DNA of 57,758 bases from Thermoproteota archaeon (GCA_021160575.1 JAGHCH010000008.1:1-57758); one strand, 5' to 3'. Counted from the stretch's first letter, positions 16,913-52,759 are shown. The notes: generated by a model from the letters alone, not told the origin. Program-made: numbers and translations.

Positions 16913-17014
16913 GATTTCCTCATTGAGAGAGATTGATACTCGGAATGTGACCCATGAGAATAATAGTTGTCAGATGGTAAATACAGAGGCGAAAGATCTT
17001 AGATTGTAGCATAA

Positions 17015-17607
17015 AATAGCTCTGCATATCCTAAGCTTAACGCCAGCGAGCTTGCTAAGGTTCTTGAAGAAATAAGAATAATGCCAATGCCAGCACCATT
17101 GTACGAGGCGGTTAAGCCAATTACGCTTGAAGAGTTTTGGGAGCTTGCTCACAAAGAGCATCTGTCTAAGATTGTCCCGGAGATTTTCCTTCCAGCTAAG
17201 CTTCCGCAAGGATTCACTCATATCAGGATATAGTATAAGCCCCCTGTTATACTCATCTCTTTCAGCGACCGACCAGTGCAGACTTATGAGGAGGCTAATC
17301 TAACGATTGAGATCTCCATGTTGAAGGTGGATGCGGTTCCATCTTTAGAGGAGCTGAAGGCCCTCTATGAAAATGACTCCAAGACTTATGTCATGTCGAT
17401 TGATGGATGGCTGTAATCTATGAAGATGCGCCTTGCATTGATCCATTATATGTTGAAACTTTCAAAACAATTCTTTGCCACACTTCATGCATCTGGATTA
17501 AGGGTGAGAGCCGTTATTACTACTATGGAGTCACCGTGTGCCCATCGCTATCGGTGGACGACTTAGTTAGAATTATTAAAAGCCTAAAACCTTTCAAGAC
17601 GACCTAA
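17015..17607 (+). pseudogene. decayed gene (DUF4367-like C-terminus) with one in-frame TAG and one frameshift
   Basis: ...LPAKLPQGFTHIRI-TAG(17231)-YKPPVILISFSDRPVQTYEEANLTIEI...YVMSIDGW, then a frame change at the GATGGATGG repeat near 17405, then AVIYEDAPC...WIKGESRYYYYGVTVCPSLSVDDLVRIIKSLKP. The three pieces read as one protein. The antisense ORF 16970..17221 is a shadow. Confidence 0.55.
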
Positions 17608-17734
17608 AAATTACTTGCCTTCAGAGACGACGTCAAACGTCTTGAGGCGCCTTTTAGCGCGTGTTTTCAGGAGTGTGTCTTTGTAAAGCTATTTATGAGT
17701 GGAAGGTGCTAGGCTGTTTCGATGATGGCTTTAT

Positions 17735-18031
17735 GTGGAGGTGAAATGGGTGGGTGTTTCTCCGAAGAGGAGGTACTACTTTTTGAAGAGCAGTTTGAGG
17801 AACTTGCTGATTGCTGAAAAGTGGCTGGTGAAGGCTGGTAGAACTAAAGTTGCTAGGAAGATTGAGGGGATTGTCAACGAGATTTGGCTTGAGATGAATG
17901 CTTTGGAGAAGGAGCTTGGGATGAAGGAGACTAAGCTGGTGGGTATTAAGAGGAAGCTTCTGGAGACATGGCATGCAGCTGGGGAGATTTCGAAGAAGGA
18001 GAAGGAGAAGCTGGAGAGGGTTATGCTGTAG
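17735..18031 (+). CDS. small coiled-coil hypothetical protein
   Basis: 98-aa Lys/Glu-rich helical ORF with a GTG start and no known motif. Confidence 0.35.
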   Translation: MEVKWVGVSPKRRYYFLKSSLRNLLIAEKWLVKAGRTKVARKIEGIVNEIWLEMNALEKELGMKETKLVGIKRKLLETWHAAGEISKKEKEKLERVML

Positions 18032-29490: not shown

Positions 29491-29937
29491 TTAAGGGAAC
29501 CGCGCAGCTTTTTTCTCGGCAACGAATTGATCGTAGATTCTCTTCACCCTTTCGTACATGGGTCCGGTACCTTCAACTCCTTGCGGTGTCACCTTGATGC
29601 GATCCATGACTGTGATGAGATTGGCTTCCTCGTACACCTTAACTAGATTTGGAAAGACCTTTTCAAGCCTCTCCGCCAATCCTTGCAGATCAAAGGGCTC
29701 TTCTTCGAGAATGATCTCAGATACAGCTTCACCCCGCACGATAACGCGTGGGTGATGCTCCCCGGTGCTCGCTTCGACGTCGGCTAAGCATAGGCTTAGA
29801 GATACGGGGTCATAACCGAGAAGCCTCCCTCTAAAAACTTTGTCTCTAACTGTTGTGACCGCCACGCGTTTACCAAGGAGTAGTGAGAGTTCTGAGAGGA
29901 AACGCTTGCTAGCACTTGTTGAGCTCAACGAACTCAA
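29491..29937 (-). CDS. Sm-like archaeal protein with C-terminal extension domain (SmAP3-type)
   Basis: LLGKRVAVTTVRDKVFRGRLLGYDPVSLSLCLADVE (Sm1) and VIVRGEAVSEI (Sm2), plus an extra domain of about 70 aa. Confidence 0.7.
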   Translation of the reverse strand: MSSLSSTSASKRFLSELSLLLGKRVAVTTVRDKVFRGRLLGYDPVSLSLCLADVEASTGEHHPRVIVRGEAVSEIILEEEPFDLQGLAERLEKVFPNLVKVYEEANLITVMDRIKVTPQGVEGTGPMYERVKRIYDQFVAEKKAARFP

Positions 29938-30043
29938 TGCGCCACACCTTCACGTGCTTTTCAGCGGGGATTATCTAAGGCGTTCTAGCAAAAAAGGATT
30001 TATGTCTATGCGAAGTGGTGGATGTAGGCGTGGTGAAGTAGAG

Positions 30044-30397
30044 ATGCTCGAAGTTCTAGTTACGGTGAAGCGAGTTGAGCCCATACCCCCTCCAGGGGTT
30101 GCTAAGCTGACGGTAGAAGATGAAGATGGTGTTGAGAGAGGGACCTTGGAAATCCCTGTCAACATTTTCAGAGCAGAGGCTGGAGAGGTTATGAAGCTGA
30201 CCTTAGATGAAGAAGAACCGAAGGGGCTGTCAGAGAAAGCTCTCGTTATGCGGGGAGACGTCTTCAAGTTAAGGGAGGAGGAAAGAGGAATTAGAGCCTA
30301 CATTTCTTGCGGTGGGTTTCAGCAGAGGATACTTTTCACAAAAGAAAAACCTCCAAAGCCCTTCCAAGAAGTTTACGTTGCCCTTGAAAAACCGTGA
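30044..30397 (+). CDS. rpoG: RNA polymerase subunit Rpo8 (RpoG)
   Basis: C-terminus ALVMRGDVFKLREEERGIRAYISCGGFQQRILF parallels Rpb8 YVMYGKVYRIE...SAYVSYGGLLMRLQG. ATG 30044 lies downstream of the TATA-like AAAAAGGATTTAT at about 29989-30001. The long ORF-track N-terminus (from 29840) is antisense to the Sm gene. Confidence 0.65.
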   Translation: MLEVLVTVKRVEPIPPPGVAKLTVEDEDGVERGTLEIPVNIFRAEAGEVMKLTLDEEEPKGLSEKALVMRGDVFKLREEERGIRAYISCGGFQQRILFTKEKPPKPFQEVYVALEKP

Positions 30398-30575
30398 TGG
30401 AACACTTTCACTTATCTCTGAGACTCTACTACTGTTGGAAGTATTCAGACCCTAACGAGTTGACCGCAGCTCGATATTTCCGAAGGAAAGGAGAGTATGA
30501 GGAGAATCAATAAAGTTTATCTTACCAACTGCAAGCGCCACCCCCGGAGCCCCCTTCAGTGGAGATGTTTCGGGG

Positions 30576-31580
30576 GTGGCATGGTTGGAGGAAACTTCTG
30601 TATGCAGTGAGTGTGGAGGAAGAATCGTAGTTGCTCCATCAGGAGAAAGGGTGTGTAGTTGCTGCGGCTTAGTTTACCCTCAAGACAACCTTGAGTTCTT
30701 AGGGTATGTTGAGCGCTATCACGGTGACGTGGATCCCGAGACATTTCTCCCTATGAGTGTAAGGGGACAGAACCCTCTAGGCACTTTGATAGGGCTTCCT
30801 GGAAAGTTCCTTTTCACAGATGCTTCAGGAAGGAGATTGAATCCAAGGTTGCAAGCGCTTTTTAGGAAGCTAAAAATTCTTCACGAGTACTCCCCCGGCC
30901 TCACTAAGCTTGAAGGGAGAAGGCGCGCGCTACGGCTTCTGCGTAAAGTCGTGGGAATTTTGAAGCTAACCCCCGAGATTTGTCAAGATGCTATGAGGAT
31001 CTATGATCAACTTCTTAACAGTATGCCCTCAACTAGCTATGTAATTCTTGCAGCTACAAGCCTCCTCTTAGCATGCAGAATTAAGGGTAGTAAAGCCCCA
31101 GTTACGCTTCAAGAGGTAGCTGAAACACTACATGTTCTCGGACATCGAGTAGCCCCACGTACCATAGTTAAGATGGCAGCCCTCGCCATCTCTCGAGGAA
31201 TTGTCAATGCGCCTAGCATGAGGCGCAGCGAGGACTATGTGGATAAAATGGTGAAGCAGCTAGCTGAATCGCCCATGTTGCTCTTGAGGATGTCTAAAGC
31301 TGGCGTGAGATCCAATGGCTACTTGAATGAATTGAAGAAGACAGCACTCCAGCTTCTAGCGAAGGCACCAGAGAGGGCAAAGAGCGGCAAAAATCCATAC
31401 ACTTTAGCAGCTTCAGCTATTTATGCTGCAGATAGGGTTTTAGCACAAAGAAGCGGAAGGGAGCCTGTAATTACACAAGCGCTTCTTTCAAAGACTTTGA
31501 AAATTGCGGAGTACACGTTGAGAGAGCACTGGGTAAAGATTTTTAGCCAAACTGCCGCTGAGCTAGCTGAAGATCGATAG
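30576..31580 (+). CDS. tfb: transcription initiation factor TFB paralogue with divergent B-reader
   Basis: Zn ribbon CSECGG...CSCCG and two cyclin-fold repeats (ALRLLRKVVGILKLTPEICQDAMRIYDQ...; NPYTLAASAIYAA...). The GPEWRAF B-reader motif expected after the ribbon is absent. Confidence 0.75.
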   Translation: MAWLEETSVCSECGGRIVVAPSGERVCSCCGLVYPQDNLEFLGYVERYHGDVDPETFLPMSVRGQNPLGTLIGLPGKFLFTDASGRRLNPRLQALFRKLKILHEYSPGLTKLEGRRRALRLLRKVVGILKLTPEICQDAMRIYDQLLNSMPSTSYVILAATSLLLACRIKGSKAPVTLQEVAETLHVLGHRVAPRTIVKMAALAISRGIVNAPSMRRSEDYVDKMVKQLAESPMLLLRMSKAGVRSNGYLNELKKTALQLLAKAPERAKSGKNPYTLAASAIYAADRVLAQRSGREPVITQALLSKTLKIAEYTLREHWVKIFSQTAAELAEDR

Positions 31581-32436
31581 CTAGAAGTTTTTCAAAGGTT
31601 ACGTGAGGTATAGGGTACACCTGGTTCATTAAGGAGCTGGCGTAATGGAGATCCTTCACCGTGATATCTAAAAGAACGAAGCAGGTGTTGCCAATTACAC
31701 CAGCAGTCCTCACGCTGAGATTTATATGCAAATCTTGAACGCAACTATTGAGACTTGAGGACGCCTCACGAGCTAGAGTTCTAGCTAAAGAGCTTACGCT
31801 TCGCGAATCTATGGAAGCGTTTTCCACGAGTGCTTGTCGAGCTAACAGCGTACACAGCTTTCCCTTAAAGAGGTTGACAGCCCGCTTCGCCAGAGCTTCC
31901 GCGGCGTAATACCGGAAGGGATGGTGAATGATCAGTGTGAACGCTTTAGAAAGGCTTGGAGAAGGAGTTGCGCCCAAGCTCTCAGTACGAAGAAAACCAC
32001 GCACCACAATCTCTATGGAACCATTCTCGGGATGAACTCCCAGCAGTCTATCCATATTGCTAAGTCCGCGCGTAGAGGGCCCGATATTAATAGAGATTAC
32101 TACTGCCTTACAGCGCACACCATCCTTTACAATACTTGTAGAAAACCCAGACGAGGGGATTCTGAGAAATTGGGCGTGTGCAGTTAAGTAGAAGGGTCGT
32201 GTGAGCTGCGATGAAATTTCAAAAAGTATCTGCCTAGACAGCTCAATGAGACAGTTCTCAGATCTCAAGTACATATCAGATAGGGAGAGATACTGCTGAG
32301 TAGCTTGCATAGCCGAGCTGTCAGGAGAGAAAAGGCTGAGGAAGGAGAGGAGTGTGGTTGAACATAGGAGGAGAGCAACCGCTGTGTAAAAGATTCCCTT
32401 GCATTGATTAGCTTTCGATAGCAGCCTCGCTAACAT
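31543..32436 (-). CDS. prepilin-like protein (class III signal peptide-like N-terminus)
   Basis: N-terminus MLARLLSKANQCKG/IFYTAVALLLCSTTLLSFLSLF, then a Ser/Thr-rich extracellular-looking domain of about 260 aa. Overlaps the upstream pilin-like gene by 29 nt. Confidence 0.5.
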   Translation of the reverse strand: MLARLLSKANQCKGIFYTAVALLLCSTTLLSFLSLFSPDSSAMQATQQYLSLSDMYLRSENCLIELSRQILFEISSQLTRPFYLTAHAQFLRIPSSGFSTSIVKDGVRCKAVVISINIGPSTRGLSNMDRLLGVHPENGSIEIVVRGFLRTESLGATPSPSLSKAFTLIIHHPFRYYAAEALAKRAVNLFKGKLCTLLARQALVENASIDSRSVSSLARTLAREASSSLNSCVQDLHINLSVRTAGVIGNTCFVLLDITVKDLHYASSLMNQVYPIPHVTFEKLLAIDLQLAQRQFG

Positions 32437-32839
32437 AACACGTCACTTCAACGAGACCCTCTTTTGTTGAAAAAGTCATGGAGGCAGAGGCAAGGACTTC
32501 TGAACTTTGAAGACTGCCCCACTCACACATAACTGTTTTACCAACCTTCAAGGCCAGCACTACCCCCCGGGGAGGAGGATTCTTCTCCAAGAAGTTAGAG
32601 AGTATTTTTTTGAACTGATAGGGATTTTCAATTAAGGCTAAATGTCCGGCTTCCTCTATAACTTTGAGTAGATAGGCTTCTCCTACTTTTTGAGCTGCAC
32701 ATCTCTCAACTTGATAGGGAAGCGAATTACCATCGCTAAAGAGCAACGCGGAGTAATGGAGTGCTATTGCTATAGAAACTGTGAGGAGGATAATGGTAGC
32801 TGCCGCGTCTATAAGGGCGATGCTTCCATGCGAATTCAC
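32408..32839 (-). CDS. prepilin-like protein
   Basis: MNSHG/SIALIDAAATIILLTVSIAIAL has a short charged leader, a Gly, then a hydrophobic helix of about 22 aa. Confidence 0.55.
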   Translation of the reverse strand: MNSHGSIALIDAAATIILLTVSIAIALHYSALLFSDGNSLPYQVERCAAQKVGEAYLLKVIEEAGHLALIENPYQFKKILSNFLEKNPPPRGVVLALKVGKTVMCEWGSLQSSEVLASASMTFSTKEGLVEVTCYVSEAAIES

Positions 32840-32968
32840 AAGTTCACCCTCCTACTAGTTCTCGAAGAAGACGCAGTAATTGTTCAAGCTGCGAGGAAAG
32901 TAGGTGGTGCAGAAGAAAACTAAGGTACATTGCAACAGTTAGAAGCGGGATATGTAGAAACTGCTTTA

Positions 32969-33331
32969 TCACTTAAGAAGCACCACCTTCAATGTGCTAT
33001 TGGAGTAGAATACTTTATACCAACCTCCTGGTTCAAGGAAATATGGGGCTACCTTCATGGATAAAGGAGCGCTCAAGCTACGTATTGTGAGCGAGTTTCC
33101 TTGAAGTTTTATAGGAGAGTCTAAATGTCTCGGGATGAAGATAACTACCTCATAGCCTTTAGCAGCCAGCTGTAAAGCTTTCTTAACTAGGAGGAGGCTA
33201 GAAAGATCATTTATTTGCTCTATTTCTGCATTCATAGCTGTCAGCTCGAAGTTGGCGACATAGAAGAATACTAGAGCCAACACTGCTAAGCTTGCTAGCT
33301 CTAAGGCTTCAGCTACAGTACGGTGAGGCAA
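32969..33331 (-). CDS. pilin-like / N-terminally anchored small protein
   Basis: MPHRTVAEALELASLAVLALVFFYV N-terminal helix. First gene of the leftward unit, divergent from the ATPase operon. No canonical G/A cleavage residue. Confidence 0.4.
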   Translation of the reverse strand: MPHRTVAEALELASLAVLALVFFYVANFELTAMNAEIEQINDLSSLLLVKKALQLAAKGYEVVIFIPRHLDSPIKLQGNSLTIRSLSAPLSMKVAPYFLEPGGWYKVFYSNSTLKVVLLK

Positions 33332-33393
33332 GAGAGCCCCTCAGAAAGGGGAGCACGATTTAAAACCTCTCTACCTTTTCAAGGGAGCCGATC

Positions 33394-33576
33394 GTGGAAG
33401 AGCTCAGAAGGAGAGTTCAGGTGCTCGAAGAGAAGGTGCTAGCCCTTCAAGATGAACTCACTCAACTTGAGTACGCCATGGAAGTGGTCTATGAAATTCT
33501 TGAAGTGAAATCTTACAAGCATTTGAGAGCCCATAGATTGGGTGAAGGAGATGTTCTTGAAGCGGTTGGGCATTGA
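33394..33576 (+). CDS. small coiled-coil protein (first gene of the rightward pilus operon)
   Basis: 60-aa heptad-like LRRRVQVLEEKVLALQDELTQLEYAMEVV. GTG start. Overlaps the ATPase start. Confidence 0.35.
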   Translation: MEELRRRVQVLEEKVLALQDELTQLEYAMEVVYEILEVKSYKHLRAHRLGEGDVLEAVGH

Positions 33577-35491
33577 GAAAAGTGCTATTCAAGCGCTTGA
33601 GCAGGTTTATGCAAAACTTGCCTACAAAAGAGTTAGAGATTGTAATCTCACAGTAAGCATTAATGGAACACTTCATGTTTTCACGTCTAATCATTTGAAG
33701 CTGTTGATGCGCATTAGGGAAACTTTAGATGAAATACGTGAAAACGCTAGGAAGAAAAGCAAGTGCGATAAATGCATAAGATCAGCTCTAGGAGAGAACT
33801 TAGTGCAAAACTTACAGGCATTAGCGAAGATATGCATTAGCAGCTTTCCATCAAGAGAGGTCAAGTGTAGAAAATGCTGGCTCGTGGAGGAAAAGGCGGC
33901 TCGACTACTTAATGAGGATTTCGCTGAGTACGCTAAGCTAATGACATCAGAGGAGAATTTGGTTAGAGCATTTTTAAATGCATTAAAACCATATATTATC
34001 GAATCGCCGCACGCATGCGTCCTTAAGCATTCAAAACTGGTGCGCAGCTACGAGATTTGGCCCTTTAAGATTTCTCTGTTAGAGGGGGATATCTTCACTG
34101 CATATATGAGCACTTTATGCGTGGCTCAAGAGATATGGTTGTTAATTGATGCAGTGACGCTGAAGACGCTAGAGAGGGAGGAAGAGGGAGGAGTAGATGG
34201 CTATCATCTCAGAGAAATTTTAGAGTCGAGGAAGGAGAAAGCGCTTGAAATTCTCAGAGAGCTATACAAGCATGGCTTCAAGTTGCCAGAGAACTGGCAG
34301 AAGCTTGGAGAGTTAGTAGCCTTTAGATCCTGTGGACTTGATGAGCTCTATCCACCACTGTTGGATGAGAGTGTAGAGGAGATCAACATCCTCAGCTTTG
34401 GAAAAACTACGTGGATACATCATAGCGAGCTGGGGGGATGCATCTACAACCGCCGAACCTATGATGCAGCTCAGCACTTAACTTCATTAGTAAAATTGGA
34501 GACGGGGATTCCCCTTGACGAAGAGAGACCTTACATCAAGGCAACTATACAAACTCATGATTTCAAGGCGAGAGTATCCATAGATATTCCACCCATTGCT
34601 GTTGATGGGTTGACTATCTCCATTAGGAAGTTCAGGGTAAAGCCATTCACTTTAGCGGAACTAATAGCTAGAGGCACTCTTACAGCAAAGGCAGCAGCGT
34701 ACCTTTTATGGAATCTCTACCATAGAAGGAACATCAGTATCGTAGGGGAGAGCGGGGCGGGGAAAACCACCCTAGCTGTTGCCTTAGATGCATTAAGCCC
34801 TCCTTGGAGGAAAATTTCGATAGAGGAGGAGGCTGTTGAAAACATTAGTCAAAGGGATTTTGGTATTGAACACGTTAGATACTTGACCTTAGCTTCAAAG
34901 CGAAGAGAAAGGGAGGCCGTACTCCTAAATATTCTGCACAAGTCCCCGGTATACGTATTCCTTGGAGAGGTATTGTACCCAGAGGATAGTAGAATGCTAT
35001 TTCACATGTTGGCGTCAGGCATCAAGTGCATCCACACGTGTCATGCTGAAGATGTGCCGCAACTGCTTAGCAAGTGGAAGAACTACCATGGAATTCCTGT
35101 GGAATCCCTGCTTGATCTAGATCTTTTAGTGGTTATGAAGAAAAGCCTTGGCAAACCAGTGTGCCGAAGAGTAGTGAAGATTTGCGAAATCGAGAAGAGA
35201 CTATATGGGGGGATGGTTGAAATTGTTGAGGTCTTTGTATTCAACCCCAATACCCAAGAACTTGAATGGAGGTTAGCGGGTATAGATAAAGCGCCCTCCA
35301 TTAGAAGAGCGATTGCAGAGGGTTATTCGCTCAGCACAATTCTAGAGGAGCTGGCATCGTATGAGAGAGCGCTTGAGCGCTACGCGTTGCTGAAAGAACA
35401 TAGCATGGAGGCTCTTCGAAGAGAACTTCTCGAGGTGAGAGAACGTGTTCTTTCTAAGAAAATTGAAGTGGGGGCGCAGGCGACCTTCTAG
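33542..35491 (+). CDS. type IV pilus / archaellum-family secretion ATPase (FlaI/TadA/VirB11-like) with extended Cys-containing N-terminal region
   Basis: RVSIDIPPIAVDGLTISIRKFRVKPFTLAELIARGTLTAKAAAYLLW, Walker A IVGESGAGKTTLAVAL, Walker B VFLGEV, and His box IHTCHAED. The N-terminus carries CDKC...CRKC. Confidence 0.85.
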   Translation: MKEMFLKRLGIEKSAIQALEQVYAKLAYKRVRDCNLTVSINGTLHVFTSNHLKLLMRIRETLDEIRENARKKSKCDKCIRSALGENLVQNLQALAKICISSFPSREVKCRKCWLVEEKAARLLNEDFAEYAKLMTSEENLVRAFLNALKPYIIESPHACVLKHSKLVRSYEIWPFKISLLEGDIFTAYMSTLCVAQEIWLLIDAVTLKTLEREEEGGVDGYHLREILESRKEKALEILRELYKHGFKLPENWQKLGELVAFRSCGLDELYPPLLDESVEEINILSFGKTTWIHHSELGGCIYNRRTYDAAQHLTSLVKLETGIPLDEERPYIKATIQTHDFKARVSIDIPPIAVDGLTISIRKFRVKPFTLAELIARGTLTAKAAAYLLWNLYHRRNISIVGESGAGKTTLAVALDALSPPWRKISIEEEAVENISQRDFGIEHVRYLTLASKRREREAVLLNILHKSPVYVFLGEVLYPEDSRMLFHMLASGIKCIHTCHAEDVPQLLSKWKNYHGIPVESLLDLDLLVVMKKSLGKPVCRRVVKICEIEKRLYGGMVEIVEVFVFNPNTQELEWRLAGIDKAPSIRRAIAEGYSLSTILEELASYERALERYALLKEHSMEALRRELLEVRERVLSKKIEVGAQATF

Positions 35492-35975
35492 CGCGCATGA
35501 TTTACGGAAAGAGTTCCTAGCATGTGCCATGATAACCACTGCTTTATCCTTGAAAATGCCCTGGACTAAGGCGCTTATAGCCGCTAGCAGCGTGCTCGAG
35601 AAGCGTTTCACTAAAGCACTTGTCAGGCTAAGAAGCGGAGAAGAGGATCTTAGGGTGTGGCTTGAGGAGGCGCCTAAAGCGGGATTCCAAAGATGGTTGG
35701 ATGTAGAAGCACTTTCTGTAGGCAGTGCTGAAGTGTCAAAGGAGGCGCTTAAGAGCCTCGAGGAGAGCCTTGTAAGAACAGCTAAAGCCAAATTTGAAAG
35801 AATGAAGCTGCTAACGCTGATTGTTGCTGCAACAGCATTTATTGCGCCAGCCCCATTAATCATAGGGCTATTTATCGCTACCGAGGCGCAGGCACCCGGT
35901 TCGGCAGTGCTGGCTCTACACATAGCAATCTTAGTCCTAGTTGCTAGAGCAATGCTCAGGAGGAGTAGTTCTTGA
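35445..35975 (+). CDS. T2SS-F/TadB-like platform protein (half-size)
   Basis: Helical cytoplasmic domain followed by LLTLIVAATAFIAPAPLIIGLFIA and AVLALHIAILVLVA. Lies adjacent to the ATPase. Start uncertain (ATG 35529 possible). Confidence 0.55.
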   Translation: MFFLRKLKWGRRRPSSAHDLRKEFLACAMITTALSLKMPWTKALIAASSVLEKRFTKALVRLRSGEEDLRVWLEEAPKAGFQRWLDVEALSVGSAEVSKEALKSLEESLVRTAKAKFERMKLLTLIVAATAFIAPAPLIIGLFIATEAQAPGSAVLALHIAILVLVARAMLRRSSS

Positions 35976-36730
35976 CTAGAAAGATCACTTCTTTTATCTG
36001 CGCATTAGCTTTCTCTGTGGAGATGCTGATATCAACGGGCATGCTATTCTTCGCATCAGCGGTGGGGATCACGGTCTTTGTAGCCGTAGAAAGGGGATTA
36101 GCACTCCTAGAGAGGGAACTGCTCAAAGAGATGTACTGGCTGAAAAGACCAAGCACCAGCTGCTTGAGAAGACTAGGGATTCTCTTGAAACTGCTAAGAG
36201 AATACAGCTTTGAGAGAGCACTTTTAGCGGCTACACAGCCTAATGAAACCACATTAAAGGTGAAGCTTAGATCTGGAGAAATCATGGAAAGGCTCTTTGA
36301 TGACTTAGACTCTGAAGAGAGAGTGATCTTAATGAACCTCTTAGAACTTGCAAGGAGGGATGCAAGGAAGGCCTCTATTTATGCAAGGGAACTTTACAAG
36401 ACCTTGTCAAGACTTGATAGAGCTGCACAATGCTTCGAAGAGTGGAGGAAAATTCTTTCAATGAGAGCGAAACTCCTCATCGCTGCATTCTCTACGACTT
36501 TAGGTTTTCTCTCGGTGCTTATTCCTATCATACTGCATGCATCAAAGATCGCTTTTAGCATGTCAAATTGCTTGTCACTATTGCTAACACTCTACGCCGT
36601 GGCAAGTGTCTCGGCCCATGTAATCTCAAGCATAGCGGGAGGATTTGGCAGGAATCTCGCTTTAGCAACTACTTGTTATGTTTCTTCAGCCATAATGGCA
36701 TGGAGCTTAACAGCCCCTCTAAGCTTTTAA
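35972..36730 (+). CDS. T2SS-F/TadC/FlaJ-like platform protein (half-size)
   Basis: N-terminal TM pair, a helical cytoplasmic domain of about 120 aa, then three C-terminal TM segments (the GspF/FlaJ topology). Its start overlaps the previous stop by 4 nt. Confidence 0.55.
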   Translation: MTRKITSFICALAFSVEMLISTGMLFFASAVGITVFVAVERGLALLERELLKEMYWLKRPSTSCLRRLGILLKLLREYSFERALLAATQPNETTLKVKLRSGEIMERLFDDLDSEERVILMNLLELARRDARKASIYARELYKTLSRLDRAAQCFEEWRKILSMRAKLLIAAFSTTLGFLSVLIPIILHASKIAFSMSNCLSLLLTLYAVASVSAHVISSIAGGFGRNLALATTCYVSSAIMAWSLTAPLSF

Positions 36731-36759
36731 ATAGAAAGCTCATTCTCTGGGGGATCAAA

Positions 36760-36990
36760 TTGAAGAAGCTAAGGGAATGGCTTAGGGATAGAAGGGGATC
36801 ACCACTAGTCGAAGAAGCGCTGTTGCTGGGAATCGCCGCCATAACGCTATCCATAGTGCTCTCCATGATAGCAGGCTTTCTATCATCCGTCCAAGGGGTA
36901 TTTGATGTTAACCTAGCGAACTTTGACGCCATAAAAGAGCAGCTTAAGCAGGCTTGGGAGACACTAATAAAGTTCTTTAGACTAGGCTGA
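36760..36990 (+). CDS. Flp-like / archaeal type IV prepilin (76 aa)
   Basis: From TTG 36760 (GGGGG SD 8 nt upstream): (M)KKLREWLRDRRG/SPLVEEALLLGIAAITLSIVLSMIAGFL. This gives a basic leader, a Gly, a Glu at +5/+6, and a hydrophobic helix. The listed ORF 36568..36990 extends upstream into the previous gene. Confidence 0.6.
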   Translation: MKKLREWLRDRRGSPLVEEALLLGIAAITLSIVLSMIAGFLSSVQGVFDVNLANFDAIKEQLKQAWETLIKFFRLG

Positions 36991-36995
36991 GAGGG

Positions 36996-38807
36996 ATGTC
37001 CAGCAGAGGTAGGGGTAAAAGCGACTTAGTGGCAGCGCTCATAGGGCTGGCCGTGCTTCTGGGCTTGAGATACTACAGAGAAGCTCTTTGGCTTTTCAAC
37101 ATTGAAGTACCGTGGAAGTTAGCTATAATGGTCGGCGGAATAATCGTAGCTGCGCTGCTGCTCTGGAGGAAAAGCGAAATCTTCAGGGTCCTTGTGAAAG
37201 GTAAACCTAGGAGGGGTAGGACCTCCATAGTTTCTGATAAAGGAGCAATTATTGCACCTGATGGAGGTCGCTATAGAGCCTACATGGCTTTTACAGCCTC
37301 CAGCGATGGAGGAGGGGAGAAATTTCTTGAAAGTCTTGACCGAGCAGGAATTCCATTTCTCTATTTGTATGCATCACCAAATGCTGCAGAACATGGAGGA
37401 GGAAACTCCCTTATACTGCTCTGCTCCAAGCCCTCTAAGGACGTGTTTAGATGCTTAGAGGAAGTTGAGCACTTAGCGAGGCAGGTGGAGGCTCTGGCAA
37501 GCGCTATGGATGAAAATGTCCAGCTAAGCTTAGTTCGGCTCGGCGGCATTGACGATCTACTGAATCTCTGGAGAATACGGGAAGTGCATGGTCAGAACTC
37601 CGGTGAGAAAAGTCTACTGAGGCCAAAAATTAAGCCCAGGTGCTACCTTGGAAACCTTGACGAGACATTACTCCTAGGAAGGGTGAGCTTTGGAGGAAAA
37701 ACAGGCCACTCAGTATTCTTGCCTAAGAGGGAGATTCTCCGGCATACAGCGATCTTTGGAGCCACAGGCTCCGGGAAGACCACGACTGCTGCCACAATAC
37801 TGGTAAAACTGCTTGAAAAGGGAGTTAATGTTCTCGTCATTGACTGGCATGGAGAATACTGTGAACTTGTTAAGAAAGTAGGAGGAGATATTTTTACACC
37901 AGGAGGGGAAGAGCACCCGATAGTTTTGAATCCCTTCGAGCTAATACAGGGCGCAGACGTCGAAGAAAGCTTGGATCTCTTCGTGGACTTTTTCAGCGAT
38001 CTCTTCCACCTATCACATGCACAAGTATTCATGTTAAAGGAAGCTGTTCGAAACGCTTACGAGAGTGCACTTGCAAGGGGGAGTCCTCCGACGCTTGCAG
38101 ATGTTATCCAAGAAGTTGGAATGATCCCTATAAGGTCAGGTTGGGATCACGAGACAAAAATGGCGCTTCTAAGAAGACTAAAGAAGTTAACTGAAGGGAA
38201 GGCGGGGAAAGCTCTTAATGGGCCTTCGACAGCGGATTTACATCAGCTCTTCAGCGGCTTTAAAGTTGTGGATCTAAGCAACTTAGGCGACTTGACCGTG
38301 AGAAGTGTTGTGGCTGCGACTATCTTGAAGCTAGCCTACGACTACTTCACTGCTCTTGGAGGCTCTGAAGATTTAAGACAAGTGATAGTGGTTGAGGAAG
38401 CCTCTAACATCATGCCACCCAGGAGAAGGGAAGACCCCCCAGGGGTAGGAGAGAGGGTGCTAATGGAGTTAAGGAAATACGGAGTTGGCATGATCATCTT
38501 AGCTCAATCTCCAGCAGCTGTTTCAAGTGAAGTATTGAAGAACACTTCAATAAAAATCGTGCATGCTTTGAGGAGCAGTGAAGATTTGAGAGCTCTGCCT
38601 AGCTTAATGTTGGCTGAAGATGAAATTAAGCAGAGAGTTTTGAAGCTGAGTCCCGGAGAAGCTCTCGTAGTGAGTCCAAGCTATCCGGAGCCAGTAGTCG
38701 TGCGTATTGAGCCACCTGAAGTTATATGGGAGGGTTCTCCGAAAAGAAACGGTTTAACAGCTTTTTCTGAGCTAACTCGGCTAGCCAGTTTACTTGACCA
38801 GGCCTGA
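36996..38807 (+). CDS. membrane-anchored HerA/FtsK/VirB4-superfamily ATPase (DUF87; CedB-like)
   Basis: Two N-terminal TM segments (LVAALIGLAVLLGL, LAIMVGGIIVAALLLW), Walker A AIFGATGSGKTTTAA, and Walker B VIVVEEASNIM. Confidence 0.8.
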   Translation: MSSRGRGKSDLVAALIGLAVLLGLRYYREALWLFNIEVPWKLAIMVGGIIVAALLLWRKSEIFRVLVKGKPRRGRTSIVSDKGAIIAPDGGRYRAYMAFTASSDGGGEKFLESLDRAGIPFLYLYASPNAAEHGGGNSLILLCSKPSKDVFRCLEEVEHLARQVEALASAMDENVQLSLVRLGGIDDLLNLWRIREVHGQNSGEKSLLRPKIKPRCYLGNLDETLLLGRVSFGGKTGHSVFLPKREILRHTAIFGATGSGKTTTAATILVKLLEKGVNVLVIDWHGEYCELVKKVGGDIFTPGGEEHPIVLNPFELIQGADVEESLDLFVDFFSDLFHLSHAQVFMLKEAVRNAYESALARGSPPTLADVIQEVGMIPIRSGWDHETKMALLRRLKKLTEGKAGKALNGPSTADLHQLFSGFKVVDLSNLGDLTVRSVVAATILKLAYDYFTALGGSEDLRQVIVVEEASNIMPPRRREDPPGVGERVLMELRKYGVGMIILAQSPAAVSSEVLKNTSIKIVHALRSSEDLRALPSLMLAEDEIKQRVLKLSPGEALVVSPSYPEPVVVRIEPPEVIWEGSPKRNGLTAFSELTRLASLLDQA

Positions 38808-39371: not shown

Positions 39372-41045
39372 TTAGTCGAACTCTCCAGCTCCCGACTCAG
39401 AGGGCTTCTCAGGAACCTTTGGCTTGCTTTCAGTCTTGGAGGCGGCGATGATGTCATCAATTCTCAAGATCATGGCTGCAGCTTCGACAGCGGAGCGTGT
39501 GGCATGAGTCTTAACGGCGAGAGGCTCGATCACGCCTAGCTCCACCATGTTGGCTGGCTTGCCCTTGAAGACGTCGATGCCAGCCCACACCTCTCCCCTC
39601 TCATGCAGCGAGCGTAGCTCCACTAGGATGTCAATGGGGTCTAGACCGGCGTTCTCTGCCAGCGTTCTAGGTATGATCTCAAGAGCATCGGCAAAGGCCT
39701 CGATGGCCAACTGCTCCCTACCTCCGACGCTAGCAGCATACTCGCGGATATGCTTAGCAGCTTCCATCTCACAAGCGCCACCGCCTCCCACAATCCTGCC
39801 ATCCTCAACCACATCGGCTACCACGGAGAGAGCATCGTGTATAGCGCGTTCAGCTTCGTCTACAATGCGCTCCAAGCCTCCTCTAAGCAAGATGCTGACA
39901 GCCCTTGGGTTCTTGCAGCCCTCCACGAAGACCAACTTGTCATCAGCGATCTTCCGCTCCTCAACCAGCTGAGCCTCTCCAAGATCCTTCTCGGTGAGAT
40001 CCTCGAGATTCGTTACTATCCTAGCGCCAGTAGCCCTCGCCAGCTTCTCCATGTCAGACTTCTTAACTCTTCTAACAGCTAGGATGCCCTCCTTCGCTAG
40101 GAAGTGCTGCGCAACGTCGTCGATGCCCTTCTGGCAGAACACCACATTGGCGCCAGTAGCCTTGATCTTGTTGACCATCTCGCGTAGAAGTTGCTCCTCC
40201 TCCTCGAGGAAAGCCTTCATCTGTGAAGGATCGCTGATCCTGATCTCAGCGTCGATCTCAGTTTTCTCGATTTCGAGTGGGCAGTCGAGCAGGGCGATCT
40301 TGGCGTTTTCAACGCGCTTCGGCATGCCTGGATGAACCACTTCTTTGTCCACGATTACACCGAAGATCAGCTGGGTATCTCCTAAGCTGCCTCCATGCTT
40401 CTTGATGATCTGAACGTAGTCTATGTCAGCGACGTAGCGATCGCCGCGCTTCTCGGCAATTTGCTTGACGGCTTTAACTGCGTATTCAGCGAACATATCT
40501 TGAACTCCAGCCACCGTCTTGCTGTTCATGGCGGTGTAAGCTATCTTCTTCAATGTTTCTTCATCGTTGATGTCCACCTTAATGGCAGCCTTCTCCAGCA
40601 CCTCGATAGCCTTGTCGGCAGCCTTTTTATAGCCCTCAATGATCACTGTCGGGTGAATATTCTTTTCCAGTAGCTCCTCAGCTTTTCTGAGAAGCTCTCC
40701 AGCAAGCACCACTGAGGTAGTTGTTCCATCGCCAACTTCTTCATCTTGAGATTTAGCGATTTCAACCATCATCTTAGCAGCAGGATGCTGAACTTCGATT
40801 TCACCTAGGATAGTGGCGCCATCGTTGGTTACCGTGACGTCACCTAGCGTGTCAACGAGCATCTTGTCCATGCCACGGGGGCCGAGAGTGGTTCTCACAG
40901 CTTCAGCTATGGCTCTGGCAGCCATGATGTTGGCTCGCTGAGCTTCTTTACCAACTGTTCTCTGAGTGCCTTCTTTAAGGATAAGTACTGGCACTCCACC
41001 AAGTTGGCCCACAGCAGCTTGACTTGCAGCAGCCATTAAGATCAC
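39372..41045 (-). CDS. ths: thermosome subunit (group II chaperonin)
   Basis: [22 protein letters not shown] and [15 protein letters not shown] are colinear with CCT/thermosome. 557 aa. Confidence 0.95.
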
Positions 41046-49974: not shown

Positions 49975-50053
49975 GGGCCCGTCGTCTAGCCCGGATCAGG
50001 ACGCTGGCCTCCGGAGCCAGAGGTCCGGGGTTCAAATCCCCGCGGGCCCGCCA
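49975..50053 (+). tRNA. tRNA-Arg(CCG), CCA encoded
   Basis: GGGCCCG-UC-GUCU-AGCCCGGAUCA-GGAC-G-CUGGC-CUCCGGA-GCCAG-AGGUC-CGGGG-UUCAAAU-CCCCG-CGGGCCC-G-CCA. Confidence 0.9.
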
Positions 50054-50104
50054 CATCCAAGCTTTACATGTACTGGCAAGCTCTAGGGCATGGTCTTTAG
50101 CTTG

Positions 50105-50497
50105 TTAAAGCACCTCATGGGGCTCTAACCGCTGGATATCTGTTCCATCGAAGTCTTTATCGAAGCTGATAATCGGGATGTTCCTTCTCTTAGCGAAGTA
50201 GTAGTGTAGCCCATCGTCAAAATCTAGACCTATCTTTTCAGCCAGTTCAGCAGCTATTTGTTCCTCTTCTAATGATAAATCGGCCACGATTAGCCCTTTC
50301 CATGTAAGCAACTCTAAAAGAAATTTAGCCACTAAGCTGGATTTTCCTAAAATTGCTGATATGCCGTGTACGGCGAAGTGCAGCATGTACGCACTTAGAG
50401 AACCCTTTTTCACTGCATTGAGCAGCTTGTAGGACTCCCTCCATCTTCCACGCTTGTACAACACTTCCAATACTATGTTGGCATCAATTAAATACAA
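50105..50497 (-). CDS. vapC: PIN-domain toxin (VapC)
   Basis: (M)YLIDANIVLEVL ... ISFDKDFD are PIN acidic residues. The TTG at 50497 overlaps the antitoxin stop by 10 nt. The ORF track starts at 50545. Confidence 0.8.
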   Translation of the reverse strand: MYLIDANIVLEVLYKRGRWRESYKLLNAVKKGSLSAYMLHFAVHGISAILGKSSLVAKFLLELLTWKGLIVADLSLEEEQIAAELAEKIGLDFDDGLHYYFAKRRNIPIISFDKDFDGTDIQRLEPHEVL

Positions 50498-50778
50498 ACT
50501 CTCATCCTCTTTCTTAGCGCTTCTACCAAGTCCTCGCCATTCCACATGTAATCAGATCGAAGACCTATACCCACAATGGAAGCTACGGTTTCGGCTCTCC
50601 CGGACTTGCTTAAGCCTAGTTCTTTCTGGACGAGATCGATGATGGCTCTTGAAAGAGCCCCCCTACGAAAACCATACTTCTCAGCTACATACCTCCGGAA
50701 TTTCTCAGCAAGCCATCTTGGCATCTCTACCTTGATGACTTCAATACTCCTTCTATTGTTAGACAATTTATTCCCCAA
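50488..50778 (-). CDS. vapB: ribbon-helix-helix (CopG/VapB-type) antitoxin
   Basis: IKVEMPRWLAEKFRRYVAEKYGFRRGALSRAIIDLV gives the beta-strand plus two helices of an RHH fold. Confidence 0.7.
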   Translation of the reverse strand: MGNKLSNNRRSIEVIKVEMPRWLAEKFRRYVAEKYGFRRGALSRAIIDLVQKELGLSKSGRAETVASIVGIGLRSDYMWNGEDLVEALRKRMRVCI

Positions 50779-50958
50779 AGTACTATAGTACTTTTGGTCT
50801 AATAAAAATGTTCAGCGTAAAGCTGCCGCACACTCCATGTCCTCCAATGGGAAATCTAGGGGGACCCCTTGAGACCTCATGCAGTACAAGTTTTCATTCC
50901 GTGATTATAGATGCTGCGCAATATTGAGCTCAGGTACCTTTTTCGTGTTTAGGGCTTG

Positions 50959-51630
50959 TCATGGCAAGAATGGTGAGATGAAGCCACCTAAATTGAAGCC
51001 AACATGTGTGGCTATGGCAGGTAGTAGAGAGCCCATTCTTTTACGGCAGCATCCCGCTATCATGCTCATTATGAATGCTGTACCGATAATGTAGGTTCGT
51101 TGGATTAGAGGTGCTGTAGAGAAGGGTATTAGGTGTATGAGCGAGAAGAGAAGTGCACTTATGGTTATCGCCATCCACGGATTAACATCGTTTTCGAGTA
51201 TGTAGCCGAGGAAGAGCCCTCTGAATAATGTTTCCTCTCCAACTGGGGCTAAGGCAAATGCGAGGATAAAGTACATGGCGCCCTGCTCTTCAACCCCAGG
51301 TATTGGAAAACTGTATCTCTCTGCGGGAGCTGTGTGGAGTTCAACGTATGCTATTAAGATCGCGAGGAGGGTGGATAGAAGAAATACAGTGAGTATTTTC
51401 GTGAAGCCGATAATTCTAAAGCCTATGATGTTGTCCTCTGGCTTCAATGCAAACTTCACAACTGTTATGGATAGTACTACAAAGAGTAGCTCTATAATGG
51501 CAACGCTGAGAATCGCGTTGCGGGAGATCGCGTATACCACGGAGCTAGCTATGGCGCTGGGTATGAAGACTACTAGCCATACCGCAAAGCCCTTGACAAC
51601 GCCAAGCAACCTTCGGGCTGCCATGAACAT
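50959..51630 (-). CDS. CPBP-family intramembrane glutamic protease (CAAX/Abi)
   Basis: APVGEETLFRGLFLGY (EExxxR), SALLFSLIH and ATHVGFN. Confidence 0.85.
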   Translation of the reverse strand: MFMAARRLLGVVKGFAVWLVVFIPSAIASSVVYAISRNAILSVAIIELLFVVLSITVVKFALKPEDNIIGFRIIGFTKILTVFLLSTLLAILIAYVELHTAPAERYSFPIPGVEEQGAMYFILAFALAPVGEETLFRGLFLGYILENDVNPWMAITISALLFSLIHLIPFSTAPLIQRTYIIGTAFIMSMIAGCCRKRMGSLLPAIATHVGFNLGGFISPFLP

Positions 51631-51855
51631 TCCTCACCGCTAAAAAAAGCATTGTATCCTAATAATTTTTTAACTATTGCTGAAGAATCTACATGGACAA
51701 CTCTTCCATAACCAACAAAGAAAATTCCAGGCCACCTAGAGATACAGCGTGCTTTATATCTTCTAAAAGGGAGTTCCGCTTCGCTTTAAATTGCTGAAAA
51801 GCTATGTTTTTTAATTTGAAATGCATCGTGCGGTTTTTAAGCTTCTTAGTGTGGA

Positions 51856-52707
51856 ATGCCCTTGAAGACGGATGTTGACGAGGTGCTTCAAGCAGTCACG
51901 GCAGCTAGGAGGAGAGCTGAAGAGATAGCTAGGAGGTTATGCTTAGAGACCTCAACGCTGCCCTGCTTTGAAGCCTATGTGCTGAATATTATCATGCTAC
52001 AGATGGCGTCGGATATGCGTAGAGGGAGGAGGGTAGATGTTGGAAGATACGCTTCAGTCGTTGAGAGAAAGCTCAGCAGTAGGAAGAGAACTGTGCTGCT
52101 AACAGAGATTTGCAGGCTTTATTGCGAAGAGCTGCAAAAAGAGAAGCTACGCATCATAGCTGATGTTGGCTGTGGCCTCGGCTTGAATTTAAACATCACT
52201 AAAAGTTATGTTGCCGATTCAGAGATCTTATTGGGCATTGATAAAAATCTCCACTTCCTTAAAATGCTTAAGGGAATGGTTGCTGGGGCAGAGGCTATAC
52301 TGGCTGATGCTTCAGCACTGCCGTTAAAGGATGAATCTATAGACATGATTTTCTGCACGGGAGTTGTTCACGAGCTTCCAAACCTTAATGCTATCGATGA
52401 AATTAAGCGGGTTCTTAAGAATGGCGGGAAGGCTCTGCTTGTAGATACTGCTTTAAGGAGCATTCCTTCGCAGGTGCTCGACATCACTAGAAGGCTTAGG
52501 GTAAGGCTTGGCAAGGAGCCGGAGATGCCCTACACGTTGAAGCAGCTGTTTTCGAAAATCGAAGCGCTCGGCATGCACATGGAGAAGAGTCTTGTTTTTT
52601 GGAGAGCTTTCATAATTGGGATTGTAGCGATAGTTGCAAGTAAAACTTCAGTTGCGAAGATCAAACTATCGGCTGGAGCACATTCGGAGAAGCTGAGTTT
52701 TCATTGA
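51856..52707 (+). CDS. class I SAM-dependent methyltransferase with C-terminal hydrophobic segment
   Basis: IIADVGCGLGLN (motif I), LADASALPLKDESIDMIFCTGVVHEL, and VLKNGGKALLVD. Confidence 0.75.
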   Translation: MPLKTDVDEVLQAVTAARRRAEEIARRLCLETSTLPCFEAYVLNIIMLQMASDMRRGRRVDVGRYASVVERKLSSRKRTVLLTEICRLYCEELQKEKLRIIADVGCGLGLNLNITKSYVADSEILLGIDKNLHFLKMLKGMVAGAEAILADASALPLKDESIDMIFCTGVVHELPNLNAIDEIKRVLKNGGKALLVDTALRSIPSQVLDITRRLRVRLGKEPEMPYTLKQLFSKIEALGMHMEKSLVFWRAFIIGIVAIVASKTSVAKIKLSAGAHSEKLSFH

Positions 52708-52759
52708 CTAAAGGGTTTGGAGCACACGCTAGGGAGCTGTAAGGCTTGCAAGTCTTAAG

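Follow-up and report, generated by a model that had tools for sequence, protein, structure and literature searches.

A conserved archaeal locus joining Tad/Epd-like filament genes, a CedD-like ATPase and a divergent TFB paralogue

What would an archaeon use a pilus operon for that ends in a HerA/VirB4-like ATPase and lies next to a gene for a paralogue of transcription factor B (TFB)? The question is raised by positions 30576-38807 of JAGHCH010000008.1, a contig of a Thermoproteota archaeon (GCA_021160575.1) of which 57,758 nucleotides, called the window in the following, were analyzed. An initial annotation made from the sequence alone had taken this locus for an island in which a pilus module, a CedB-like motor and a dedicated TFB are fused, and an ORF check of the window found every open reading frame (ORF) that it had listed at the same coordinates. 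Our analysis indicates that the locus very probably encodes a type IV filament machine with an integral ATPase of the CedD family. As the best explanation overall we propose a pilus similar to the Tad and Epd types that works with a CedD translocase under the TFB paralogue, a proposal that we give an even chance of being right. That the role of this machine is the import or exchange of DNA appears to us slightly short of evenly probable.

The features of the locus are given below with coordinates in the window and strand. The sign ↓ marks a predicted processing site, and L-numbers denote related loci on other contigs, L003 being the closest relative.

30537-30580 (+): GC-rich hairpin with a 14-bp stem over the GTG/TTG start of the TFB-like gene, minimum free energy -36.4 kcal/mol
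30576-31580 (+): divergent TFB/TFIIB paralogue with Zn ribbon and two cyclin folds, without canonical B-reader; matches Pfam TFIIB and Cyclin_N
31543-32436 (-): 297-aa pilin-like protein with class III-like N-terminus (..QCKG↓IFYTAVALLL), dN/dS 0.25
32408-32839 (-): 143-aa pilin-like protein (MNSHG↓SIALIDAAATIILL), dN/dS 0.12
32969-33331 (-): 120-aa pilin-like protein with a leaderless N-terminus (MPHRTVAEALEL..) of the MPSE(T/S)(I/L)E type, dN/dS 0.23
33332-33393 (no strand): divergent intergenic region, putative promoter, with a TATA-like TTTAAAA box and a short palindrome
33394-33576 (+): 60-aa coiled-coil ORF, first of the rightward operon, with a gene call also in L001
33542-35491 (+): 649-aa secretion/pilus-assembly ATPase of the T2SSE family (archaeal GspE2/FlaI/CpaF type) with a long N-terminal extension; matches Pfam T2SSE
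35445-35975 (+): first platform-like membrane protein, 176 aa, T2SSF/TadB-C-like; its start overlaps the ATPase gene by 47 nt
35972-36730 (+): second platform-like membrane protein, 252 aa, with about five transmembrane (TM) helices; its start overlaps the preceding gene by 4 nt
36760-36990 (+): 76-aa Flp-like prepilin, predicted major subunit, site RRG↓SPLVEE
36996-38807 (+): 603-aa HerA/VirB4-like ATPase of the CedD clade with N-terminal membrane anchor, a predicted DNA translocase; starts 5 nt past the Flp-like gene

The ATPase that closes the operon

The last gene of the rightward operon encodes a protein in which the Walker A (GATGSGKTTT) and Walker B (VIVVEEA) motifs are intact and invariant in the family alignment. 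Pfam DUF87 matches it with 80.5 bits, the TrwB/TraG coupling-protein signatures lie above threshold as well, and two N-terminal helices are predicted. The HerA/VirB4-like ATPase with intact Walker motifs and a two-helix anchor that had been described at first was thus seen in all its parts. It had also been called CedB-like, and on this point the profiles lead elsewhere: against NCBIfam the protein scores 217.6 bits with the CedD model (NF053655), compared with 59 for TraC, 58 for HerA, 38 for VirB4 and 26 for CedB. The CedD model is matched by 43 of 43 family members, with a best E value of 1.3e-81 that lies tens of orders beyond the other models, and the CedB model by 10 of 43. Judged by these profiles, the ATPase is assigned to the CedD clade and stands closer to it than to CedB, HerA or VirB4.

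The genomic position of the gene agrees with that of CedD in Pyrolobus (L013), where the order is TGT, RpoG, CedD, a convergent kinase and the thermosome gene. The Pyrolobus locus lacks the TFB-like gene and the pilus module, and no Zn-ribbon ORF was found near its CedD gene. Because the flanks are the same, the window ATPase can be regarded as an orthologue of crenarchaeal CedD by position as well as by sequence. What the locus shares with the Ced systems of Sulfolobales and Desulfurococcales (TedD in Thermoproteales) is an ATPase of the same clade: CedD is the top NCBIfam match for the proteins of the window and of Pyrolobus and for 41 others, the window protein is likewise membrane-anchored, and a convergent kinase and the thermosome gene are adjacent as in Pyrolobus and, by locus tags, in S. 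acidocaldarius. The partners differ, since a type IV filament module takes the place of CedA, CedA1/A2 and CedB. For importing DNA, S. acidocaldarius and S. islandicus cannot do without CedD (PMC11823120, PMC11868833). This protein was described in 2025 by one group as a membrane-bound VirD4-like ATPase and by the other as a CedB paralogue with homology to the VirB4 N-terminal domain (PMC11823120, PMC11868833).

The ATPase domain was modeled by AlphaFold2 with a predicted local distance difference test score (pLDDT) of about 90, and a Foldseek search with it retrieved HerA (4d2i, E 5e-19) and, as the most compact match, VirB4 (4ag6, template modeling score 0.73, root-mean-square deviation 4.2 Å, 21% identity). 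VirB4 energizes pilus biogenesis, and this match could be taken to mean that the locus makes nothing but an adhesion or aggregation filament, the CedD-like ATPase being a second pilus motor for VirB4-like extraction and assembly, or for retraction, that translocates no DNA. Such a function would agree with the single T2SSE ATPase and the lack of a PilT-type retraction ATPase in the locus, with the distance of 5 nt between the major pilin gene and the CedD-like gene, and with the 26 of 43 homologues that have no TM anchor, as fits a cytoplasmic motor docking on the platform. However, the members of this clade that have been studied experimentally are dispensable for aggregation in S. acidocaldarius and needed for DNA import in both Sulfolobales species. 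Hexamer models of CedD have a positively charged pore of ~28 Å (PMC11823120), and the TrwB/TraG coupling-protein signatures above the Pfam threshold also argue against a filament motor. We therefore consider a pilus without DNA translocation unlikely, if to be taken seriously, and retain the CedD-like protein as a candidate DNA translocase.

Thermophile-type CedD-like proteins, that of the window included, carry one or two N-terminal TM helices. The anchorless ones (L056, L057, L085, L098, L104 and others) come mostly from high-GC loci, and one of them matches a protein of a Nitrososphaerales metagenome-assembled genome (MAG). In L027 (13769-15603, from a MAG labeled 'Nitrososphaerota') two ORFs, one for the N-terminal part (208 aa) and one for the ATPase (355 aa), stand in place of a single CedD-like gene, in a locus that also encodes an A24 peptidase. 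Within the window, a 448-aa ORF (8138-9484, +) just upstream of radA (9825-10772) reaches 30.8 bits with the hidden Markov model (HMM) of the CedD-like family. This protein has no Walker A motif and no match in Pfam or NCBIfam, and it looks like a degenerate HerA-like relative in a recombination neighborhood, not like canonical HerA.

The filament module

The rightward operon is compact, its neighboring genes overlapping or lying at most 29 nt apart. It shares a 62-nt intergenic start region with the three leftward genes (120, 143 and 297 aa), to which the TFB-like gene (334 aa, 30576-31580) is convergent. A promoter in this region (33332-33393) is suggested by its TATA-like sequence, and TTTAAA-type boxes occur in the equivalent intergenic position of L003, L005, L006 and L027; a bacterial promoter and terminator scan gave nothing informative, being made for the wrong domain of life for archaeal DNA. 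Purifying selection acts on all genes of the locus (dN/dS 0.01-0.25 against L003).

The gene that precedes the CedD-like ATPase is the most constrained of the locus: its 76-aa product is 96% identical to that of L003 with a dN/dS of 0.012, compared with 60-89% identity for the other locus proteins. It consists of a basic leader, one hydrophobic TM helix and an amphipathic C-terminal helix. The motif RR[GA]↓[SA][QP]L[IV]EE[AG]LLL extends across 55 distinct orthologues, all of which have the first Glu and all but one (54 of 55) the second. Glu at position +5 after cleavage behind Gly or Ala is a hallmark of type IV and Flp prepilins, and the predicted cleavage after G/A places a Glu at exactly this position in the 76-aa family. 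The initial designation as a Flp-like prepilin accordingly stands for the site RRG↓SPLVEE, the single TM helix and the motif in the 55 orthologues. It does not extend to membership in Pfam Flp_Fap, so 'Flp-like' here denotes size and motif, not a family.

The FlaI/TadA-type ATPase of the initial annotation was borne out by the profile libraries, in which the 649-aa protein reaches 47 bits with Pfam T2SSE (cut-off 24.9) and 76 and 60 bits with the NCBIfam models of FlaI and TadA. Among the sequences in the Protein Data Bank (PDB) it is closest to 2oap, the GspE2 of A. fulgidus (69 bits), followed by FlaI (61) and CpaF (53), and past its close archaeal relatives the database homologues are mostly named CpaF. 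N-terminal CxxC pairs in this ATPase were considered as a link to arCOG05558 and dropped, as they are conserved only in the closest relatives. The 60-aa ORF in front of it has no family match in the profile libraries, and comparable small coiled-coil ORFs precede the ATPase gene in L005, L006, L027, L053, L065 and L099. Between the two genes, a soluble protein of 150-174 aa is encoded in L005 (5551-6012), L006 (5551-6075) and L053 (4163-4615). The beginning of this protein (..LGFSKERVEEVLSKY) is similar to that of the ATPase in the window (..LGIEKSAIQALEQVY), pointing to a fusion in the lineage of the window.

Two half-size membrane proteins downstream of the ATPase had been read as a split platform of the GspF/TadB-TadC kind. 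Neither has a Pfam match of its own, hhalign detected no similarity between the two families, and PDB profile searches found no GspF or PilC for either. Among 18 members scanned from the two families taken together, T2SSF is the sole Pfam family that recurs, in 5 of 18 and with a best E value of 2.7e-5. For the first gene the platform identity is supported by a transitive profile match: the family profile of the 176-aa protein, which lacks the N-terminal TM helices present in longer orthologues, aligns with a 306-aa protein of L028 (hhalign probability 97.8%, E 9e-13), and the latter matches T2SSF with E 2.7e-5 and 24.6 bits, just below the cut-off of 25.2. Orthologues of the 176-aa protein also give weak T2SSF matches. 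For the second gene the same identity is plausible and comes from weak matches of orthologues alone, namely L005 (E 0.045, 107 of 125 model positions) and L011 (0.089). The reading of a split platform is accordingly supported for the first gene and plausible for the second.

The initial annotation had further pointed to three divergent genes with pilin-like N-termini. This was confirmed, as all three leftward proteins begin with a short polar N-terminus followed by a single hydrophobic helix. They evolve fast (dN/dS 0.12-0.25), and many of them and of their positional orthologues have [KR][GA]↓ sites or a leaderless N-terminus with an early acidic residue; these N-terminal classes are regular-expression descriptions without a null model. 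Positional orthologues of the 297-aa protein measure 248-315 aa and share [KR][GA]↓hydrophobic N-termini (L005, L006, L009, L027, L053, L092, L106), and the protein is probably a large minor pilin or adhesin. In L003 (4546-5299) this orthologue is shortened to 169 aa, corresponding to residues 128-297, maybe by decay or by an assembly error. The [RK]G↓x..LID motif of the 143-aa protein recurs in L003, L005, L035, L039 and L041. The 120-aa protein has weak reciprocal similarity to its positional orthologues in L005, L006, L009 and L027 (E 1e-4 to 1e-10).

Cleavage of these proteins would call for a prepilin peptidase. Peptidase_A24 matches occur inside the orthologous loci L027 (29.3 bits) and L053 (43.2 bits; cut-off 26.5), and weaker A24 matches with the GxGD motif lie inside L065, L099 and L108. 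Among the polytopic ORFs of the window that were checked for this function were a cation-efflux protein, an Rce1-like protease and an M48 protease, and a 7-TM ORF was rejected because it lacks the GxGD motif.

Taken by gene content, the module resembles the Tad/Flp (type IVc) pili and the archaeal Epd systems, with which it shares a CpaF/TadA-like ATPase, two short platform-like genes, a very short pilin with a predicted G/A↓xxxxE site and, in some related loci, a small A24 peptidase. Two adjacent short platform genes instead of one two-domain gene are a trait of Tad and Epd (Denise et al. 2019, PMC6668835). The locus differs from both in that it has no secretin, TadZ/FlaH or RcpB/TadD, that its ATPase is nearer to the solved archaeal GspE2 and FlaI than to CpaF, that its pilin falls outside Flp_Fap, and that it adds a HerA/VirB4-type ATPase and a TFB paralogue.

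Gene order in relatives and inheritance

When genome contigs were scanned with a full-length alignment of the ATPase, the Walker A motif dominated the result: most matches were bacterial HerA-like genes without relation to the family, and the Pyrolobus locus alone was useful. Word-indexed homologue searches grossly under-counted the family with 12 and 6 matches. Metagenome contigs were therefore scanned with the C-terminal half of the ATPase, which yielded 192 relatives, and 80 loci were retrieved and annotated by HMMs built from the first loci. The gene order that recurs in these is TGT, Lsm, often Rpo8, the TFB-like gene, three to five pilin-like genes on the opposite strand, one or more small ORFs, the T2SSE ATPase, two membrane proteins, the Flp-like gene, the CedD-like ATPase and a convergent kinase (PRK03839), often followed by the thermosome gene. 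Synteny in relatives was among the checks that had been proposed, and this order was found in about 40 distinct loci with GC contents of 0.23-0.68. The following counts include only those of the 80 loci with enough flanking DNA.

Flp-like gene directly upstream of the CedD-like gene: 49 of 53 loci
T2SSF-like genes upstream: 33 of 39 loci
T2SSE ATPase upstream: 32 of 35 loci
TFB-like gene upstream: 24 of 26 loci
Convergent kinase downstream: 65 of 69 loci

The linkage of the pilus module, the CedD-like ATPase and the TFB-like gene is not accidental. The three components had been described as fused into one locus, and a tight locus it is, though not a fusion specific to one lineage. The carriers include Nitrososphaerales-type soil MAGs: one CedD-like protein is identical to a Nitrososphaerales MAG deposit, and others are labeled Thermoprotei or Nitrososphaerota. 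The constant neighbors in the window are the following.

29840-30397 (+): gene for an Rpo8/RpoG-like RNA polymerase subunit, Pfam RNA_pol_RpbG 21.6 bits
38722-39315 (-): putative kinase (PRK03839/AAA_18, Fap7-like) on the right flank, NCBIfam PRK03839 116 bits, overlapping the CedD-like gene convergently
39372-41045: thermosome gene, beyond the kinase

PF16992 is annotated at the position orthologous to the Rpo8 gene in L001, L005 and L006, and this gene is a constant left neighbor that stands outside the machine.

The locus is AT-rich, as had been noted by eye, with a GC content of 0.463 in 30576-38807 compared with 0.508 in the rest of the window, the fourth lowest value among 248 segments of the same size. 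This offset, together with the frequency of HerA/VirB4-type ATPases on archaeal mobile elements (PMC4158269), could suggest a horizontally acquired conjugative or integrative island that exports DNA, as the term island had implied. Yet the same flanks are found in about 40 distinct loci and in all related contigs long enough to judge. The offset is small in each genome and in line with that genome's own bias, having the opposite sign where GC is high (L033, L104), and weakly constrained membrane and pilin genes would be expected to behave in this way. Pfam and NCBIfam detected no integrase among the ORFs of the locus, no tRNA lies close by (the nearest are 13 kb and 11 kb away), and there are no flanking direct repeats, merely short imperfect ones. 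In pairwise comparisons, the genes of the locus diverge in step with TGT and the thermosome gene on the flanks (Spearman 0.57-0.78, compared with 0.88 between TGT and thermosome), and the divergences of the CedD-like and T2SSE genes co-vary (Spearman 0.76). We conclude that the locus is an ancient, widespread and vertically inherited feature of the chromosome and not a mobile island; acquisition as an exporting element is very improbable. A conjugation-like function with plasmid export likewise found no support, as no VirB2, VirB6 or relaxase-like gene is present.

Some regions and loci depart from this picture or stand beside it. In the window, positions 17001-18000 and 50001-53000 have GC contents of 0.44-0.46 similar to that of the locus, and the latter region, just past tRNA-Arg (49975-50053) and with genes for a PIN-domain protein and an Rce1-like protease, is a likelier insertion candidate than the locus studied here. 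A gene at 4572-5690 (-) matches 'methanogenesis marker protein 11' with 155 bits, below the cut-off and consistent with an origin in Methanomethylicia. L059 (8770-11625) is a natural deletion variant in which only a 272-aa C-terminal remnant of the CedD-like protein is left between the TFB-like gene and the kinase, the pilus module being gone. L028 (4681-8670), from a member of the Jordarchaeaceae (Asgard), encodes the closest ATPase outside the lineage (37% identity), a T2SSF-like protein and, on the opposite strand, a Flp-like protein with the GSPLVEE motif; the contig ends before a possible CedD-like gene.

The TFB paralogue and the possible role of the locus

The product of the gene at 30576-31580 retains the TFIIB fold, with Cyclin_N at residues 105-182 and TFIIB at residues 253-320 in Pfam, and the four Zn-ribbon cysteines (CxxC...CxxC). 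It was initially called a TFB paralogue without the GPEWRAF B-reader, and this was confirmed, as neither the sequence nor the family alignment contains a motif of that type. The family profile matches TFIIB/TFB structures over positions 19-324 (1e-21) and also the Zn ribbon of P. furiosus TFB. A phmmer search of 1.84 billion representatives gave 415 relatives, 172 of them below 1e-10. Against the NCBIfam TFIIB model the window protein scores 30.7 bits (cut-off 384), and 40 of 42 sampled relatives match that model with a best E value of 1.5e-24, far short of the cut-off. These weak scores across the family indicate that the protein belongs to a large family of divergent TFB paralogues and, as far as profiles can tell, is not the general TFB. 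Within the family of the locus both cyclin folds are always retained, and the Zn-ribbon cysteines are conserved to at least 90% and lost in L005, L006 and L027. The hairpin over the start codon has a z score of -4.1, none of 200 shuffles folded equally well, and its sequence is conserved in L003; it may be an element of translational control.

TFIIB homologues are the commonest regulators in archaeal loci for type IV pili (T4P; PMC4858521). One case for comparison is that of the Ups pili and the TFB3 regulon of Sulfolobales, which unites the same triad of type IV pilus, Ced-family ATPase and TFB paralogue. The analogy between the locus and Ups, Ced and TFB3 that had been drawn initially is apt as an analogy, with two differences: the Sulfolobus ups genes lie elsewhere in the genome, and TFB3 is described as a truncated TFB, whereas the locus protein keeps both cyclin folds and some lineages lose the Zn ribbon instead. 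By locus tags, tfb3 (saci_0665), the thermosome beta gene (saci_0666) and cedD (saci_0667) are neighbors in S. acidocaldarius (PMC5817253, PMC6934391, PMC10653856, PMC11823120), and in S. islandicus tfb3 (SiRe_1717) and cedD (SiRe_1715) are two genes apart. To go by this adjacency of locus tags, the tfb3-thermosome-cedD region of Sulfolobales may be a remnant of the locus. We treat the comparison with TFB3 as a positional lead from the literature and not as a claim of homology.

A second system to be compared is that of the Thermoproteales 'clade 4D' loci, which contain a T2SSE ATPase, a 4-5-TM protein, a TFIIB homologue and RPB8 and no pilins, and for which a role related to transcription has been suggested (Makarova, Koonin and Albers 2016, PMC4858521). 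Their published description (arCOG05557/05558/05559 and RPB8) matches the neighborhood of Rpo8, TFB-like gene, T2SSE ATPase and membrane protein in our locus. Given this likeness, the locus could instead encode a T4P-like apparatus that forms no pilus and is tied to transcription or another informational process, and the constant linkage to Lsm, kinase and thermosome genes and the housekeeping-like constraint on the TFB-like gene (dN/dS 0.03 against L003) would agree with this. Such a function is hard to reconcile with the conserved prepilin-type subunit, the pilin-like genes and the A24 peptidases inside the locus in some genomes, all of which are difficult to explain without a filament, and the housekeeping neighbors lie on other strands or in other operons. 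It appears quite unlikely to us. Clade 4D differs from the locus in having no pilins or secreted proteins and a TFIIB homologue with a single cyclin domain, where the locus has a conserved prepilin, pilin-like genes, two cyclin folds and the CedD-like ATPase. Compared by description, clade 4D may be a reduced version of the locus.

What the sequence data show is the gene content, the family assignments, the processing-site motif of the pilin, the operon linkage and the conserved synteny; that a pilus is formed, that DNA is the substrate, in which direction it moves and that the TFB-like protein regulates the locus are inferred. For a Tad/Epd-like pilus coupled to a CedD translocase, the following course of events can be proposed. 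An A24 peptidase encoded elsewhere in this genome would cleave the 76-aa pilin behind RR[G/A], and the T2SSE/T2SSF machine would assemble the product into a thin filament of the Tad/Epd kind, to which the fast-evolving leftward genes could supply tip or minor pilins or adhesins that set the specificity of contact. This pilus might contact another cell or capture DNA. A hexamer of the CedD-like ATPase would then move the DNA across the membrane at the expense of ATP, most probably inward as in Sulfolobus, the protein being anchored by its own helices here and the anchorless homologues (26 of 43) presumably docking on the platform. The CedD-like gene is translationally coupled to the pilin gene. 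The TFB-like protein would most likely direct or modulate transcription of the two divergent operons, its own translation perhaps being gated by the hairpin. The logic of a retractile filament combined with a membrane-associated, ATP-driven DNA translocase is shared with bacterial competence systems (the Com pseudopilus or T4P with ComEC/ComFA; FtsK/SpoIIIE), but the DNA motor of the locus belongs to the HerA/VirB4 clade and is unrelated in detail, and there is no ComEC-like channel. We regard this as an analogy only.

Several observations weigh against this explanation. The CedD score of 217.6 bits is far below the equivalog cut-off of 600, and the alignment covers model positions 202-526 only, in the ATPase domain, the N-terminal 200 residues remaining unaligned. 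The CedD of a Pyrolobus (Desulfurococcales) MAG, which stands in canonical position, scores 226.8 bits and thus likewise stays under the cut-off and aligns by its ATPase domain alone, and the NCBIfam model is therefore narrow and evidently tuned to Sulfolobales. Besides the lack of a TM anchor in 26 of the 43 family members, the Sulfolobus CedD works with a VirB-like system and not with a type IV pilus. None of the known CedD partners CedA, CedA1/A2 and CedB was found within the 57.8-kb window. In agreement with the initial annotation, neither a CedA/VirB6-like protein nor an A24 prepilin peptidase was found there, the latter by tblastn with the L027 enzyme and inspection of the polytopic ORFs. 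Pfam Flp_Fap fails on the 76-aa protein and matches 1 of 32 members of its family (E 0.0075). The second membrane protein is only weakly T2SSF-like, and its AlphaFold2 model, built from a 6-sequence alignment, failed with a pLDDT of 51. Finally, the constant linkage to Rpo8, Lsm, kinase and thermosome genes could indicate a different, housekeeping role.

All components of the locus belong to known families. What appears to be undescribed is their arrangement as a Tad-like pilus operon that ends in a CedD ATPase, is flanked by a TFB paralogue and keeps a fixed place between Rpo8 on one side and the kinase and thermosome genes on the other. No T4P operon that includes a CedD/HerA-type ATPase as an integral part is described in the T4P census (PMC4858521), in the study of the type IV filament superfamily (PMC6668835) or in the Ced and Ted papers, and a wider, incomplete literature search found none. 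CedD has been described only in 2025 and only for Crenarchaeota, where it is encoded apart from the other ced genes (PMC11823120, PMC11868833). The present findings imply that CedD-clade ATPases are much wider spread than reported and that their gene is almost always the last in a conserved pilus operon with its own TFB paralogue. To our knowledge, the uptake and exchange of DNA in archaea outside Sulfolobales is largely unknown, and we know of no identified motor for the membrane step of archaeal natural transformation. The locus is a strong candidate for an apparatus of DNA uptake or exchange that is widespread in archaea.

A more far-reaching interpretation, which we consider somewhat unlikely, is that the locus represents the ancestral and complete DNA-import machine of archaea, composed of a Tad/Epd-like pilus, CedD as inner-membrane DNA translocase and a dedicated TFB paralogue as initiation factor, and widespread in Thermoproteota. 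The tfb3-thermosome-cedD region and clade 4D would then be reduced remnants, CedD would have been recruited later to the VirB-like Ced system, and TFB3 would derive from the TFB of the locus. If true, such a machine would span Methanomethylicia, Nitrososphaerales-type soil archaea and uncultured 'Thermoprotei', with related ATPase, platform and pilin genes in an Asgard MAG. The tfb3/cedD pair of Sulfolobus could plausibly have originated from such a locus, which may also account for the puzzling TFIIB-RPB8-ATPase loci of clade 4D. Should the assignment to DNA transfer prove wrong, the locus would still be a widely conserved and undescribed variant of the type IV filament with an unusual second ATPase.

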